Shown one piece after another: positions 6,001 through 12,000 of a stretch of DNA of 12,700 nt. Source of the DNA: Candidatus Nanohaloarchaea archaeon (lineage in GTDB: Archaea > Nanohalarchaeota > Nanosalinia > Nanosalinales > Nanosalinaceae); NCBI GenBank assembly GCA_047617745.1, contig JBLGBN010000023.1, positions 1-12,700 of the forward strand, written 5' to 3'. Position numbers: made by a program. The stretch's first letter is position 1. Each line of letters begins with the position of its first letter.

Positions 6001-9000
6001 GCGCTGAAATACTTCTCATACGCACTTGATTCAGCCATAATTATAATAGCACTTCTCTACCTCAACACCGGTATAAACACAGGTGTAATCGACTCGCTGA
6101 TCCAGTTTGTACCACAGATGATTTCAGCAATCCTAGTAGTGATCCTCGGTTTTCTCGCGATCAACATCACGACAAAGGCTGGAGCGGACTTCATGAAGAC
6201 CATAGGAGTTCACACGTACTTCAGGGAGATAGGGCTTTCACAAAGCGCTCTCAGGCTCTTCGCAGGTATTCTGAAGGCATTCCTGTACCTACTGCTGGTT
6301 CAGATATTCCTCACACAGCTGGGAATAGGAAGCGCTTTCGTGGACGAGCTTGTAAGGGCGTCTTCCTGGGCAGCAGCTTTCCTGATTGCAGGTCTGCTGT
6401 TCTACGGCTTCAAAGATCTCTTCCAGAACTACGCAGCCGGAATATACCTCAAGAACTCCCGTGTAGCTAAACCGGGCGAAGAAATTGATATGGATGGAGA
6501 AAGAGCCGAGATAAGGAACGTATCACTTTTCAGCACGATAACAAACACCGAATCCGGCAGAACAGTTCTCTCACCCAACATAAAGCTGATGAACTCGAAC
6601 CTGTCAGTGAAGAGAACCAAGAGCGATATTGAAACACTGGAAGACATAAAAGACCACTTCATAGCAGAGAAAAAGGAACTAGCAGGAGCCGCATCAATTG
6701 CAATGGCCCTGGAAATATTCGGCTACCGCGCCGAACAGGAAGAAATAGACGAGAAAACAGAAGACACCTCCCCAGAGGAGATCGAGAAAGCAGTCAAAGA
6801 CATCACCAACGGAAACGTGAAGACAGGGTTTGTAGAGCATGAAAAAATAACTGATATCGGATCCGAACTCAAAACCTGGTTCAACGACGGCGGCCTGGTC
6901 CTTGCCAGGATAGACAAAGAAAAACTATTCACAGAAACCGAGATAGAACAACAGGTTCTCTGTGTAGGAGTTGAAGGGAACGAAGTACTGGTGGTTGATC
7001 CAGGAGCAAGAAGAGGAGGCGTATACTATATAGATAAAGAAAGGCTTCTGGAAGCTATCGAGGACACAGAAAAGCCAGGTTACACTGTCATCGCGCCTGA
7101 AGGCACCACAGCATTCTGGAGGATCAAGAATAATCTGCTTTATTCAGATAAAAGCTATTACGAGGAACTCTCCAAAACCCTTGAATCCCGGCTTACACGG
7201 ATAATGAGACAGGGACGTATTCTGAAGGAGAGTATGCCATCTTCCGTCTCCAACTACATGGATAAATGGAGAAAAGAAGGGGACGTCGCAAGGCTCTGGT
7301 CGCCGGAAGACGAGGAGTGATACTATCCGGCTTCTAACAGTCTCAAAAGACGGCGTTGAAGGCTTCGAAGGATTTTTCGAAGAGGTAAAGAACGTAAGCA
7401 TATCCAACGTCTCACCTGAGGTGATAAAAGGTGAGAGAAAAGTAAGCGTCCAGGAAGAGCAGATAGAGGATTACGACGCAGTCTTCACCGAGATACCGCC
7501 TAAAAACGCAGTTTTCGGAAGGGTTTTTCTTGAAACTATCGAGGAAAAAGGAATACCAACCGACAACCCTTCAACAGCCTATTTTACCGCCGCAAAAAAG
7601 AACTACCTTTACTACGTAATGCACAAGCGCAGCATCCCTGCCCCAAACACAGTTTCAGTGGCCGCAGAGAAAGCAGTAAGAGATGTAGAAAACCGTGTGG
7701 AACTACCTCTAGTAGCCAGAAGAATCGAGGAACTTGAGGAAACCGAGAAAAGGAAACTGGAGACCAGCGAGGAAATACAGAGCTTCTCGGAAGGCGTGGA
7801 GTACGAGGAAGATATCCTTCTTTTCCACGAGCTAAATGAAGGAGAGAAGTACCGTTGCCTTGTGATAAACAACGAGATAATATCGCTCAGAGAGGGCTCA
7901 GATGGCTGGAAATTTACGGGAGAGAACCTGAAATACTCGAACCTGTCAGATAAGCAGAAAACCTTAGTCCAGAAAACATGCGACTCAATCGGTCTTACCA
8001 TAGCCGAAATATTGATCAGAGGAGAGGAAATATACGATATAAATCCCAACCCGAACCTGGAACTCTACTCCGAAAAAGCCGGCAAAAACATTTTTTCAGA
8101 AGTAGCAGAAGCCCTGAAAGGTGATATAGAGTGAAGCTGGCTATAATCTACGGTGAAGTATCGACCAAACACCAGATGATAATGGAGAGGGCCGAAGACA
8201 TATTTGACTCTGTTCTAGCTGTACCCGTAGACGGAATAAAGTTCCTCCACACCGGAGATGACCAGAAAGTCCTGTACAAAGATATAGACCTAACAGAATA
8301 CGACGCAGTTTACATCAGAACCGATGACCGCGACATGCTTTTCGCGGAGCACCTGGTAGAGGTCCTAAACGAGGAAGGAGTTGTCACACAGGCTGAGAAC
8401 GACACGTATGCATACGAATCGAACAAGTTCTACAGCATGAAGGTGCTGGCCGAAAACGGGATAAACGTACCTGACAGCGTATACACTCTTTCACCCGAGG
8501 TCGCAGTGAACGCAGCCAAAGAACTCGGATACCCCGTAATAATGAAAACTGTCAAAGGGGTAGGCGGAGAAGGAGTGATGAGAGCGTCAAGCGAAAACGA
8601 GCTGAAACCGGTGATGGATACAATGAAATCGTTTGAGCAGGAGATCTGTCTCCAGGAGTTCAAGGAGCACGGCGGGACAGATACGAGAGTAATTGTTATC
8701 GGGGACGAAGTTATGGCTTACTCCCGGTCCAGCGATGATGACTGGCGATCAAACATCTCAGGAGGCGGTGAACGGGTAGAGGCAGAACTGAGCCAGAAAA
8801 TGAAGGATGTCGCGAGAAAAGCAGCCGGCGTAACAGGGTTCGACATATGCGGTTGTGACGTGATTGAGAGCGATGGAGAACCCTATATACTCGAAATAAA
8901 CGGATCTTTCGGGATAAGTGAGGAAATGAACCGGATAATAGGTAAAGATGTAGTACTACGATTAGTTGAGAGGATGCATGAAAGAGCGATGAAGAAAAAG

Positions 9001-12000
9001 AGAAAAGATTAGCGCGCCATCTCAATCAACGTTTCCACCACTTTCTCCATCAAAGGCTCCTTCCATGATCTGACATCTTCATCATCATAGAAAACCAGTC
9101 CCGGCTTCGAATTCATCTCAAGGATCCAGGGGCGGCCATTTTCGTCGAAAATGAAGTCGACAGCGTATACCCGATTCCCAAACTGGCTGAACCGGTCCTC
9201 AACTTCATCAACGATTTCAACCGCTCTCTCAGGAATATCTTCAACTTCTATATGATGCATCGATCCTCCTCTTGAGACATTGCTTATCAGCCCTTCGTCA
9301 GGCGTACGGACGAAACTGGCGGCTTTTTCCCCGTTAACAACAATAACCCTGAGATCGTGAACGCCCTCTATATCTAGCTCCGGGATACCAGACTCGGAAT
9401 CAATGAATCTCTGAACCAGTAGATCGTCTTCAGGTTCAAATTCCTTCATACTGTCAATAATTCTAACGCCCTTACCACCGAAATCGTACCTCGGTTTGAG
9501 AACGACGCTGCCGTATTCCTGAAGCATTTCCACAACATTTTCCTCAGACGCCCCCCTTGTCTCAGGCACTCTACCAGGAAATTCATCGTATGTCAGTAGT
9601 TTATCCTTGCATATCTCTTCCAGCTCGTAGCTGTTGAGAACGGGGAGATCATCATGCATTTTCTTCTTGATATCTACAGTTTCATCACCAAACTTGAACT
9701 TGTCAAATATACCATCGATCTCAACGTTTTCGGCCTTACTCCACTCACCGTTTCTATAGCGGTAGGCTTTCTCTAAACCATTGTCTCTATACCAGGAAAA
9801 CTTACCGATCAGTATTTCAGCACCTCTTTCCTCCGCAAGCTGGGAGAAAACAGCGTAACTCGAGTTTATATAATCCTTTTTGAACGGCTTACCTCCGTCC
9901 CAGTCAACCTCACTGTCCCATAAAACGGCTATAGTCGGTCCCATAATCATTAAACGCCGTCGAATACTTTTCAATATTACTTACAAATACCGTGACATGA
10001 CCATCCCGAAAGACAGAATTTCCCGGAAGATAGAGGAAAATAAAGAAATTAACCTGGAACTGGGTGACAGTCAGTTAATACAGGATCTCTCCGATACCGT
10101 GGAGGTTTTGCTGGACAAAACACAGTGGTTCAAGAACATACGGATTCAGAACAAGAATAACGAGCTGGAAAGGTTTAGAGAATACAGAGAAAATGGAAAG
10201 AATTACAGACCGAACTTTGAATTCGAAGAGTATCCCCACAAAACCAAGCAACTGAAACAGCTAATCGAAAAATGCAGAAGTGAAACAGAGAAGATAGATG
10301 AAAAACACCTGAAGGAATTTGGCGCAGAAACTATAGGGCCTGAGGATATGAAAGAATTTTTCACGGAGATATTCCGCGAAATAGAGCTCTACATCAAACT
10401 GGCCGACGAGATAGAGAGTGAGCAGAAGTGGCGGGAAATCTCAGAGAAAACCTGGCCGATGATCGAAAAAAGAATAGCCGAAGAATCGACAGAATACCTA
10501 AAAAACAGCGAAAACACTGAACCCAAAGGCGAAGTTTCACCGGAAAGAGTTGCGGAGATGTTCCGGAAAGAGATAGATAGACTCGGGATGGACTACAAGG
10601 TCGAGACCAGAAGAACCGCAGGCTGCTTCAACGCCCCCGAGGAGAAAACGGTCGTTGTTGCCAGAGGTGAAGAAGGCGAGAGGGTTTACTCGGAAGATGA
10701 AGCAAAGATGGTTACGATGCACGAAATCTTCCATGCTGTGAGGGCCTACAATGGATTTAAAGCCGGAGAAAAATCGGGTTTCCCTGAAATAATCGGGCTT
10801 CACACCCCTTTCTACGACAGAGCGGAGGAAGGAGGAGCACTGTACAGAGAAAAAGCAACAGAAACGATGTATACACGAAAAGAGTTCGACTACCATCTCA
10901 GACTTGTCGCGTCATATGAAATATCTGAATCAGACAATTTCAGAGAAGAATTCAGTTCCATAGCCGAAAAACTGATTGATCTCGGTGCGACAGAGGAAAG
11001 AGCTTTCCATCTTCTAGCGAGAAACAGAGAAGCTCTGCGCCACCATATCTACCTCGGCGGATACCATGACTGGAAGGATATAGAGAATAAAGAGAAGATG
11101 CTGGTCGGTAAGGTTAACGAGGAATGGGCAGACAGATTCTGGGAAGAGGCGGAAGCAGGAGGTATGATACAGAAACCTGCGATCGGTTCGGAGAAGCTTT
11201 TCGATTTCACCTTTAAAGATTCAGAGTAAATAGTCGATTATGGAAGATAAAATCTTGCTCGACACCAATTTTCTGGTAGCGCCATTCCAGTTTTCATTCG
11301 ACGTTTTCGAAGAGCTGGAAAGACTATACCCGCATGCCGAGATATATACTCTTGACGATGCTATACAGGAGGCAAAAAGCATCAAAGGCGGAAAGTACGG
11401 CGATCTGGTCGAACAGCTGATTGAGAAGAAAGATATCAAAGTGCTTGAAACAGAAGGCGAGGGCGAGGTTGACGATCTGATAGTAGATATCGCTGATAAA
11501 TTTGTAGTAGCTACTAACGACAAAGAGCTGAAAGAGAGGCTTCTAGACAACTCCAGACCGGTTATAATCATCCGGACCGGCGACCATCTCGAAGTGAAGA
11601 ACGGTCGGGCGCAGAATCTGTAGAGATACAAACCCAATTTAAAACTTGCGTCATCATTTTCTATCTGTTAAAAGGGATAATATGTACAAAAGACTGACAA
11701 TCCAGGATCAGGTAAGAGTTCCTCCACAGCACCTCGGAGAAGACGTAGAGGAAAGCGTTAAAGCAGGACTCGCAGAGGAAGCTGAAGGAACCATCAACTC
11801 GGAAATCGGAGTAGTAATCGGAGTTGAAGACGTACAGTCGATCGAAGGCGGAGAAATCCAGCCGGAAGACGCAGGAGTTTTCTACGACGTCGAATACAAC
11901 GCAATTGTCTACGAACCAGAGCTTCACGAGATAACCTTTGGAGAAGTAGTCGACATCACAGAGTTCGGAGCGTTCATCAGAATCGGACCATTCGACGGAC

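Follow-up and report, generated by a model that had tools for sequence, protein, structure and literature searches.

A MATCAP-family peptidase gene next to RimK-type ATP-grasp ligases in a nanohaloarchaeal genome: a candidate locus for building and trimming glutamyl chains

Human MATCAP1/TMCP1 and TMCP2 (PF08014; structures 7Z5G and 7Z6S) shorten polyglutamate chains, and the characterised MATCAP enzymes all act on protein tails, as described in the accessible part of PMC10499314. In Pseudomonas, the RimABK system joins a RimK-family glutamate ligase to a polyglutamate-removing peptidase, and the accessible parts of PMC7343187 and PMC11957791 record activity on protein tails as well as on free poly-alpha-glutamate; the best-characterised substrate of RimK is a ribosomal protein (PMC7343187). 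The rloABC operon of P. aeruginosa (PMC11957051, accessible part) specifies a polyglutamate protease (the secreted aspartic protease RloA), an inactive 7TM-transglutaminase (RloB) and an ATP-grasp protein, which work in hypo-osmotic stress. The RimK fold also supports alpha-glutamate ligation in RIMKLA/RIMKLB, MptN, CofF and LysX/ArgX, which glutamylate small molecules or carriers (PMC7907349, accessible part). A bacterial cluster of FGase, QEGLA (TIGR02421) and a GshB-like ligase (PRK12458-type) places a MATCAP-family peptidase beside an ATP-grasp ligase, but is functionally uncharacterised in the papers searched. At E ≤ 0.001 the prokaryotic PF08014 proteins number 4,234 clusters, and the literature searched gives them no function.

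The window analysed here is 12,700 nt of a Candidatus Nanohaloarchaea archaeon (GTDB lineage Archaea; Nanohalarchaeota; Nanosalinia; Nanosalinales; Nanosalinaceae), positions 1–12,700 of the forward strand of contig JBLGBN010000023.1 (GCA_047617745.1). The locus offers a specific, testable function for prokaryotic PF08014 proteins, namely to trim the glutamyl chains that an ATP-grasp ligase encoded next to them would make, and bears on the origin of the tubulin detyrosinase/deglutamylase. Its features are as follows.

3922..4287, + strand: eS6 gene, product ending SEEE; a candidate acceptor only if proteins are tailed
5830..7320, + strand: MscS-like/C39 membrane protein (Pfam MS_channel matches and a weak Peptidase_C39_2 match)
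7325..8134, + strand: RimK_A, RimK-fold pseudo-ligase judging by its residues, probable ATC start (RimK match, E 5.8e-5)
8131..9012, + strand: RimK_B, intact RimK-family alpha-L-glutamate ligase, predicted writer/elongase (TIGR00768, residues)
9009..9944, − strand: LIG3, intact ATP-grasp ligase from a DPANN family (invariant residues, model fold)
9945..9996, no strand: A+T-rich spacer of 52 nt separating the start codons of LIG3 and the peptidase, which diverge from it (sequence)
9997..11229, + strand: MATCAP/TMCP-family (PF08014, DUF1704) gluzincin metallocarboxypeptidase, predicted eraser (profile, model)

Membrane protein and ATP-grasp ligases

The first-pass annotation described a locus of three ligases and a peptidase at 7325..11229, leaving the preceding membrane-protein gene (5830..7320) outside. 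All four genes are open as it placed them, and two of the ligases (RimK_B and LIG3) are intact, but the first (RimK_A) lacks most catalytic residues. The membrane protein is an MscS-like protein fused to a C39/papain-like domain (consensus motifs YCGPA and HYVL) that is degenerate here, with Ala285 in place of the consensus Cys and Gln374 in place of the consensus His; the Cys is retained in 25 of 47 homologs. Its gene immediately precedes the RimK pair at 41 loci, at 11 further loci and in a genome of another order (G550). Membrane protein, pseudo-RimK and active RimK follow a fixed core order, and the core is inserted within an eS6-aIF2gamma-PIN-RpoE1 gene string. Many loci have two Kef-like genes a few genes downstream.

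RimK_A keeps the ATP-binding Lys in 41 of 42 sequences but was rejected as an active ligase: it has neither Gly loop nor RSN loop and no counterpart of R199 or D243, E255 is replaced by Asp in 38 of 42, and the Arg/Asp pairs and ExN motif are likewise mostly replaced, marking it at the sequence level as a pseudo-enzyme. Its first codon, ATC, lines up with the Met of the M-[KR]-LL start of relatives, and three other genomes (G022, G064, G065) likewise offer only ATC/ATT there. Since contigs from four runs, two of which carry no possible-source flag, cover nt 7000–8042 without an indel, the missing ATG is real, and a non-canonical ATC start is probable.

RimK_B scores 145.6 bits against TIGR00768, above the curated cut-off of 143.4, and the best PDB match of its profile is E. 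coli RimK (E 4e-44), with ArgX behind (2e-26). Residues R63, K99, K139, D184, R186, R199, R206-S207-N208, D243, E255 and N257 are invariant in 42 sequences, and alignment to E. coli RimK shows all catalytic and glutamate-binding residues to be kept. The known equivalogs were rejected, all scoring below cut-off: bS6--L-glutamate ligase (PRK10446; 100 vs 331 bits), MptN (118.8 vs 350), CofF (76.4 vs 300) and LysX (108.4 vs 275.6). To our knowledge bS6 is absent from archaea, and the six-frame translation of this genome (89% complete) contains no LysW-like C-terminus. RimK_B is present in 65 of 70 genomes; because it is kept in so many genomes of about 1 Mb, the RimK core is probably important to these symbionts. 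MATCAP is absent from 26 of the 65, including two single-contig genomes that are 96–99% complete.

In LIG3, K115, K150, D197, R199, R213, N222, D263 and E276 are invariant across 75 sequences, marking it as an intact ATP-grasp ligase. Its structure model (pLDDT 96) gave 1gsa, 5k2m and RimK as best Foldseek matches, glutathione synthetase being the closest solved fold; TTLL6 ranked 28th (TM 0.58/0.46), after GshB, LysX and RimK. The modelled fold is GshB/RimK/LysX-like rather than TTL-like, and the label 'TTL/YheCD-like' given earlier traces to partial Pfam matches (TTL at residues 268–314 only, spanning 46 of 292 positions; YheCD at 245–308). Against YheC/D-like ATP-grasp (PF14398), LIG3 scores 53 bits (cut-off 26.8) in two stretches, the best spanning 62 of 255 positions. 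LIG3 was rejected as a glutathione synthetase equivalog (36.1 vs 272), though that fold is the closest. LIG3 occurs at E<1e-40 in 35 of 70 genomes, with one to three tandem copies in relatives, and its named relatives come from Woesearchaeota. It is LIG3, not RimK_B, that is the tight partner of the peptidase (22 of 22 genomes of the peptidase clade). Their start codons are 52 nt apart (46 nt if an alternative LIG3 ATG at 9950 is used), the layout is repeated in 15 relatives, and the spacer is probably a shared promoter region; a scan with a bacterial-type promoter model was uninformative, with three matches against 1.9 expected.

The peptidase and the exchangeable slot

The MATCAP-type motifs HEIFH (242–246) and EEGGA (277–281) reported for the peptidase are present, as is the Pfam MATCAP match (E 9.1e-6, yet at 25.3 bits below the gathering cut-off of 27), and 88 of 95 homologs carry PF08014, in line with the earlier 'most'. 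All 26 aligned family members match PF08014 (best 2.9e-52), and the family profile detects human MATCAP 7Z5G at E 5e-17. The model (pLDDT 97) has MATCAP as its top match both in Foldseek and by VIA, and aligns to the human enzyme over 266 residues (Z 18.1, rmsd 3.4) at 14% identity; structure comparison also relates the fold to M32 carboxypeptidases. H242, E243, H246 and E278 are invariant in 26 sequences, giving an intact gluzincin site. Profile and model together identify the protein as a MATCAP homolog with its metal ligands in place, and it is predicted to be an eraser, perhaps a metal-dependent carboxypeptidase on acidic tails.

Besides the fold, the two His, the catalytic Glu and the downstream EEG ligand, it shares with the human enzymes conserved basic residues and the C-terminal R..K/RxxxY..G and GK motifs. 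At ten positions Arg or Lys is kept in no fewer than 12 of the 13 clade members (R205, R229, R249, R284, R302, R335, R342, R344, R348, K372). It differs in being encoded with ATP-grasp ligases, in the loss of the GGF/GCF loop, in RHHIY for KDQVY in the clade, and in an HExxH rather than the TMCP-type HExxxH spacing (described in the accessible part of PMC10499314), which several distant archaeal members have. The window protein is thus a homolog within a variant, fast-evolving nanohaloarchaeal clade. Tubulin, for which no search was made, is not expected in this lineage and would not be its substrate. Compared with RimABK, the eraser is a gluzincin exopeptidase and not a retropepsin; a pseudo-RimK, a second ligase and the MscS/C39 protein are added, there is no bS6, and a one-sequence profile found no RimB in this genome. 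The likeness to rloABC, where a single locus likewise encodes a membrane protein carrying an inactive papain-type domain, an ATP-grasp protein and a peptidase that cuts polyglutamate, is one of description, the parts here being a MATCAP and an MscS-like/C39 fusion. QEGLA peptidases have an N-terminal extension (FGase-like in locus L177) and a ligase of another subfamily; the window peptidase does not match TIGR02421, and distant relatives score 109–230 against a cut-off of 338.65.

The peptidase, first counted in 32 of 70 genomes, was found in 34 with a single query and 39 with a profile. Of these 39 genomes, 24 have it beside ligases and 15 within the uL10–P1–alaS region, two of them showing both arrangements. 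Twenty close relatives have an intact locus, divided, as claimed before, between 15 with the gene divergent beside LIG3 and five in the uL10-P1 interval. The stalk/alaS position is common to distant peptidase clades in three families and to basal members of the window clade, and is probably inherited for that reason; it seems to be the ancestral position and points only weakly to any substrate. Unrelated inserted genes also gather in this interval, and P1 ends in Phe, not Glu, in 14 of 14 cases. The proposed writer-eraser pairing stands as regards opposed chemistry, through the RimK_B residues, the MATCAP homology and the recurrence of the ligase-peptidase link in separate lineages, but the step from stalk operon to acidic C-termini is weak.

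The slot after RimK_B is interchangeable between lineages. Three separate peptidase lineages within Nanohalarchaeota occupy it. A GCS2-type carboxylate-amine ligase takes it in 13 of 70 genomes (directly downstream and co-oriented with RimK_B in all 13), none of which has MATCAP; eight of them have LIG3 and five do not. In 19 of 70 it holds a DUF1611-like P-loop protein, never together with GCS2 or the window's peptidase clade, and in six genomes of family f5 it holds AstE, RimK_C and MATCAP. A marker tree, read by eye, shows some four to five switches between the MATCAP and the GCS2 state. That the two exclude each other points to a role of one GCS2 subfamily that has gone unrecognised.

Other DPANN phyla also have MATCAP–ATP-grasp pairs, as do bacteria, where FGase accompanies them. 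The full membrane protein, RimK_A, RimK_B and MATCAP set recurs in G550, and pseudo-RimK, MscS, DUF1611-like and MATCAP genes in G204. The core was also seen in the order of G071 and the phylum of G070. Outside Nanohalarchaeota the association of MATCAP with ligases is loose: in the order of G071, three of 40 fetched loci have an ATP-grasp gene within two genes of MATCAP, and in the phylum of G070 one of ten MATCAP genomes has a RimK-like gene nearby. In three of the four bacterial loci inspected, FGase and a GshB-like ligase flank MATCAP, and 32 of 40 listed plasmid/chromid records have the ligase adjacent to MATCAP, nearly all of them from rhizobial kin. Here as elsewhere, records of kin are not independent of one another. 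One locus (L154) reads MscS, MATCAP, GshB-like, FGase, DAC, glutamate dehydrogenase; another (L121) adds PGA_cap and M29 peptidases.

Possible substrates

Our tentative preference, held with less than even confidence, is that the locus builds and trims glutamyl chains, mainly on small molecules or polymers of the free or N-acyl oligoglutamate type, with EE-ending proteins perhaps incidental primers. N-acyl-glutamate peptides follow a logic of ligase, carboxypeptidase and deacylase, and the genes found alongside the peptidase or in its place (GCS2, DUF1611-like, AstE, FGase, glutamate dehydrogenase, PGA_cap) belong mostly to small-molecule glutamyl chemistry. LIG3 would make a short primer or second linkage, a role filled elsewhere by a GCS2-type, DUF1611-like or RimK_C enzyme; RimK_B, partnered by RimK_A, would lengthen it with alpha-L-glutamate at the expense of ATP; the peptidase would trim the C-end one residue at a time; and an AstE/FGase-type deacylase, where present, would free the last residue. 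The purpose, the least certain step, is likely to be the locking away of glutamate for release upon salt or nutrient shifts. All three ligase-fold proteins and the peptidase travel with the MscS/C39 membrane protein. Free poly-alpha-glutamate is made by RimK enzymes (PMC11957791 and PMC11957051, accessible parts), mammalian RimK homologs glutamylate small acids (PMC7907349, accessible part), and in Photobacterium at low salt RimK is up 52-fold, a GshB gene 38-fold and the adjoining QEGLA/MATCAP gene 27.5-fold (PMC10308900, Table 2). Against this, the characterised MATCAP enzymes and the best-characterised RimK act on proteins, 26 of the 65 RimK_B genomes lack MATCAP, the ligase association is loose outside Nanohalarchaeota, the osmotic link comes from one bacterium, and a ligase-fold GCS2 that excludes a peptidase lacks a rationale.

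Slightly less likely, and to us possible but doubtful, is that RimK_B adds tails of alpha-glutamate to proteins ending in EE (eS6, RpoE1, uL10 and further ribosomal proteins), which the MATCAP homolog then removes, comparable to RimK/RimB on bS6 and TTLL/TMCP on tubulin, whose chemistries are exactly opposed (PMC7343187 and PMC10499314, accessible parts). The core lies among such genes, the peptidase is by uL10/P1/alaS in 15 of 39 genomes, its ten basic residues stand out amid an acidic proteome, and a DPANN genome (G071) has a RimK beside a RimB-type protease; glutamylation has also been proposed to adjust protein charge to salinity (PMC10219603, accessible part). EE ends eS6 in 26 of 40 loci, RpoE1 in 20 of 44 and uL10 in 7 of 11, against 39 of the 877 ORFs of this genome, which serve as the comparison in place of halophiles lacking the locus. 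This may be general halophilic bias, as many ribosomal proteins here end in EE (about ten of the 39 ORFs, which we take to be ribosomal from their sequence features). The stalk position is moreover shared with unrelated insertions, the peptidase's tight partner is LIG3, and the GCS2, DUF1611-like, AstE and FGase partners are left unaccounted for. Slightly more doubtful is the wider version, in which prokaryotic MATCAP proteins erase RimK-type protein polyglutamylation, a membrane-tethered pseudo-RimK/RimK pair of nanohaloarchaea tails translation or transcription proteins on osmotic change, and MATCAP or a Dop-like GCS2 removes the tails. If true, this would be the first cycle of protein glutamylation in archaea and would show what a tubulin-code enzyme did ancestrally.

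It is unlikely that the peptidase is a general acidic-peptide carboxypeptidase recycling amino acids for the symbiont and owes its place by the ligases in part to being carried along in a housekeeping operon. In favour, no ligase gene adjoins most of the other DPANN MATCAP genes (37 of 40 loci; nine of ten genomes), aminoacyl-tRNA synthetase genes lie at most two genes away in seven of 40 loci in the order of G071 (alaS in ten nanohaloarchaeal loci), M29 and M14 peptidases are also neighbours, and the fold is related to that of M32 carboxypeptidases. The three peptidase lineages in the RimK slot, the G550 and G204 arrangements, the bacterial homologs beside ligase and FGase, and the zero overlap with GCS2 all speak against it.

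That LIG3 and the peptidase build and clip a glutathione-like gamma-glutamyl di- or tripeptide, with the RimK pair acting separately, is improbable. GCS2 would make the dipeptide de novo where MATCAP is absent, MATCAP by trimming elsewhere; this accords with their mutual exclusion, the eight genomes with GCS2 and LIG3, the GshB match and the Kef-like genes, Kef being gated by glutathione. However, five of the 13 GCS2 genomes have no LIG3, the GCS2 gene always runs in the same direction as RimK_B, the GshB score is far below cut-off, and haloarchaeal GCS2 homologs lie beside glutamine amidotransferase or transporters (four plasmid loci read). Least probable is a tubulin-like detyrosination cycle in which the last residue of stalk protein P1, a Phe, would be taken off by the peptidase and put back by a ligase, switching translation-factor binding: human MATCAP does remove a terminal aromatic residue, P1 ends in an acidic run and GLGxLF/MF in 14 of 14, and the peptidase gene directly follows P1 in several distant genomes, but the residues before Phe are GLGx(L/M) and not EE, LIG3 is not TTL-like, and most genomes with a P1-adjacent distant peptidase lack LIG3.

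Gene content of the locus

The locus belongs to an assembly of 834 kb (89% complete) and consists of five genes lying between aIF2gamma and a PIN-RpoE1-Spt4-eS24 gene string:

5830–7320, + strand, MscS-like/C39-like fusion (membrane protein)
7325–8134, + strand, RimK_A, first RimK-fold gene, pseudo-enzyme by sequence
8131–9012, + strand, RimK_B, second RimK-fold gene, passes TIGR00768
9009–9944, − strand, LIG3, third ATP-grasp gene, intact ATP-grasp ligase
9997–11229, + strand, peptidase, MATCAP homolog

Profile searches found no other RimK-like or MATCAP genes in the genome. 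The window is nanohaloarchaeal, as those homologs of its peptidase that bear a name come from Nanohaloarchaea. RimK_B scores above the TIGR00768 cut-off, has true RimK as its nearest solved structure, and keeps every RimK catalytic residue (42 sequences). The first-pass annotation had counted three ATP-grasp ligases; this holds for RimK_B and LIG3, which are intact, while RimK_A is judged from its residues to be a pseudo-enzyme, because it retains one ATP-binding lysine but lacks the glycine and RSN loops and the equivalents of R199 and D243. The RimK_A start is probably ATC. None of the codons ATG, GTG and TTG occurs in frame where the homologs start. The ATC at nt 7325 matches the Met of relatives in the alignment and is preceded at 7 nt by a GGAG motif (nt 7311–7330), and three other genomes (G022, G064, G065) likewise have only ATC or ATT there. 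An assembly error was ruled out, as no indel was seen in the contigs of four runs and relatives also carry ATC/ATT. A sigma-70 promoter scan of the locus gave no informative signal.

The active site of LIG3 is intact. Its description as TTL/YheCD-like has to be revised, as both Pfam matches are partial and Foldseek places the modelled fold closest to glutathione synthetase, LysX/ArgX and RimK and ranks TTLL6 only 28th; membership of the TTL family was rejected on this ranking. Tests also rejected LysX, MptN and CofF roles for RimK_B, and the tests run placed the locus enzymes outside the bS6-RimK, MptN, CofF, LysX, GshB and TTL groups. LIG3 occurs in tandem copies in many relatives, with three copies in L033 and L034 and two in L035, L036, L039, L040, L049, L080 and L088. 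A predicted complex of RimK_B, RimK_A and residues 196–496 of the MscS/C39 protein scored 0.00, controls not having been folded, and is taken as evidence neither way.

The C39-like domain of the membrane protein has its Cys in 25 of 47 homologs and Ala in the window. A shorter MscS-like gene likewise lies 3' of a pseudo-RimK in genomes G204 and G070. At many loci the gene string is preceded by TrkA/TrkH genes (nt 1693–3784 in the window) and followed by two Kef-like genes, a context that is weak because housekeeping genes intervene. The gene between eS6 and aIF2gamma (nt 4284–4592, 102 aa) belongs to no known family and is present only in some relatives, and the contig end (nt 3–1328) carries a putative photolyase-like gene, named from sequence features.

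A constant core and an interchangeable slot

RimK_B was found in 65 of the 70 Nanohalarchaeota genomes compared, and the full-length order MscS/C39, RimK_A, RimK_B in 41 loci plus 11 more. The position after RimK_B (the ligase slot) is variable. LIG3 is present in 35/70 genomes (E < 1e-40), including all 22 with the peptidase clade of the window. A GCS2-type ligase occurs in 13/70, always directly after RimK_B and co-oriented with it. None of these 13 is among the 39 genomes with MATCAP; independence of the two genes would predict about seven overlaps, although related genomes are not independent samples. On a five-marker tree covering 63 of the 70 genomes, MATCAP and GCS2 states alternate approximately four to five times, some nodes being weakly supported. 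Two single-contig genomes (96–99% complete) carry LIG3 and GCS2 without MATCAP. The slot GCS2 subfamily (L071:5571-6602 and 12 other genomes) is shared with haloarchaea, where plasmid homologs adjoin a glutamine amidotransferase in two of four loci and an MscS gene in one of four.

A third variant is a DUF1611-like P-loop gene, found in 19/70 genomes but in none with GCS2 or with the window's peptidase clade. It is unannotated and convergent on RimK_B (L091:5367-6404 and 18 other genomes). Ten genomes combine it with MATCAP; in eight the peptidase is a distant MATCAP located in the uL10-P1-alaS region (the stalk position), in G007 it occupies the slot, and in G060 the contig is too short to place it. 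The label 'DUF1611-like' rests on Atlas look-alikes, of which 11–18% of cluster members carry PF07755; the nanohaloarchaeal protein matched no solved structure, and its alignment to the DUF1611 protein of G204 is weak (probability 21%). DUF1611 is reportedly linked to a D-glutamate acetyltransferase, a link not found in the literature searched and given no weight here. A Priestia homolog is clustered with two ATP-grasp genes and an M20 peptidase. AstE deacylases accompany the DUF1611-like gene in family f4, and the ligase-fold gene RimK_C together with MATCAP in family f5.

The peptidase was detected in 34/70 genomes with a single query and in 39/70 with a profile. It occupies the ligase slot in 24 of the 39, the stalk/alaS region in 15 and both in two, while two (G022, G060) were not placed. 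Earlier counts were reproduced: PF08014 is carried by 88 of 95 homologs, and in the 20 close relatives whose locus is intact, the peptidase is divergent from LIG3 in 15 and lies in the uL10-P1 interval in five.

The peptidase and its relatives

The peptidase falls just below the Pfam cut-off (25.3 against 27). A PDB search with the single sequence returned nothing significant, so a profile was needed to reach MATCAP; the 26-sequence profile matched the human protein at E 5e-17. MATCAP was also the best structural match of the model (pLDDT 97) by Foldseek and by VIA (Z 18.1, rmsd 3.4, 266 residues), followed in VIA by DUF885 and M32 carboxypeptidases. The metal ligands H242, H246 and E278 and the catalytic E243 are invariant in the 26-sequence alignment. 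The branch that leads to the window's clade is long and has full support. The clade shows HExxH in place of HExxxH and RHHIY in place of KDHIY, and ten basic positions are kept in at least 12 of its 13 members. These basic positions fit an acidic substrate, since Arg and Lys of human TMCP1 bind glutamate-rich peptides (PMC12612596). TMCP1/2 shorten polyglutamate and leave the branch-point glutamate in place (PMC10499314). A 686-aa MATCAP protein of G177 (L149:6634-8694) has repeated charged segments and, at its N-terminus, some 300 aa without annotation.

In the phylum of G070 (Aenigmatarchaeota), MATCAP was found in 10 of 201 genomes. The gene order in G204 is pseudo-RimK, MscS-like, unknown, DUF1611, MATCAP, and as a lead its 326-aa gene is FGase-like (score 0.88); in the remaining nine no RimK-like gene lies near MATCAP, and an ATP-grasp_5 domain two genes away in one of them was left uncounted. 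Among 301 genomes of the order of G071, whose ligase has named relatives in Woesearchaeota, 70 have MATCAP, 18 a LIG3-like gene and 10 both (14 and 8 for the latter two without four unpublished genomes). An ATP-grasp gene lies within two genes of MATCAP in 3 of the 40 loci fetched from 82 matches. In one of these three, G550, the complete MscS/C39-RimK_A-RimK_B core is present and runs divergently from MATCAP. In G071 MATCAP is surrounded by PGA_cap, LIG3-like and M29 genes, and elsewhere in that genome a gene for a RimB-type aspartic protease immediately precedes an intact RimK (L153:54-1531), so some DPANN genomes carry both RimB and MATCAP.

In bacteria, three of four loci inspected pair MATCAP with FGase and a GshB-like ligase. 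Among the matches listed (40 of 129), 32, nearly all from rhizobia, have an adjacent ligase, adjacency being scored where the record was also among the 60 ligase records listed. Of 19 metagenome loci examined, many of them short, L154 specifies MscS, MATCAP, GshB-like, FGase and glutamate dehydrogenase, and two further loci have an ATP-grasp gene nearby. Since the association is found in some DPANN, bacterial and metagenome loci and is absent from others, MATCAP-ligase pairing is recurrent but not obligatory.

Possible function

The locus is real and conserved, and represents a known type of system in a variant undescribed in the literature searched. That literature, which included few subscription papers, held no prokaryotic pairing of MATCAP/DUF1704 with ATP-grasp, no function for such a MATCAP and no account of the archaeal locus. 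The 2009 survey by Iyer and colleagues of gene neighbourhoods around ATP-grasp enzymes may cover the bacterial cluster. The available portions of PMC8939145 and PMC4431377 make no mention of it. The closest parallel is RimK/RimB, similar in its working, in which a retropepsin takes the place held here by the MATCAP homolog.

RimK_B would attach alpha-glutamate at a C-terminal carboxylate, from which the peptidase would take it off again. Whatever the acceptor, the peptidase quite probably undoes the bond made by one of the locus ligases. One more gene for an ATP-dependent enzyme of ligase fold (LIG3, GCS2, DUF1611-like or RimK_C) accompanies RimK_B in almost all genomes that have it, as would be expected if a primer has to be made, and the recurrence of deacylases points to N-acyl ends. 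For these two reasons the balance leans slightly towards a glutamyl cycle on a small molecule or free polymer, itself a tentative reading, over protein tails. The two are compatible, as RimK works on both protein and free polymer (PMC11957791 and PMC7343187).

Modification of protein tails, the proposal of the first-pass annotation, is only slightly less likely. Acidic EE ends are frequent in uL10 (7/11), eS6 (26/40) and RpoE1 (20/44); in the window's genome 39 of 877 ORFs, called crudely, have them. About 10 of these 39 are presumably ribosomal proteins, and EE ends may therefore be a halophilic bias. The stalk position is shared by distant peptidase clades of families f1, f4 and f5 and, with low support, by members of the window's clade that branch off at its base; it is thus most simply ancestral, with more than one later move of the gene into the ligase slot. 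Unrelated genes have also been inserted in the interval, in the window's genome among others. A scavenging peptidase, as loci with no ligase neighbour might allow, is improbable. A glutathione-like peptide is very improbable, and a cycle on the terminal Phe of P1 (present in 14/14) still more so.

An osmotic role is suggested, if only indirectly, by the MscS-like gene, by the co-induction in Photobacterium at 1% NaCl of RimK, GshB and an adjacent gene for QEGLA, a bacterial MATCAP relative (PMC10308900, Table 2), by the analogous rloABC (PMC11957051) and by the enrichment of brackish bacteria in glutamylation genes (PMC10219603).

In the window's genome, uL10 (G000:C4:26868-28031) has an additional helical domain at its end, which also terminates eS24 and other proteins and scores against the eS24 profile; the uL10 of relatives ends in acidic runs. 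MATCAP often adjoins aminoacyl-tRNA synthetase genes; for the order of G071 such a gene lies no more than two genes away at 7 of the 40 loci (L185, L190, L199, L202, L203, L204, L217), the nanohaloarchaeal loci having alaS.
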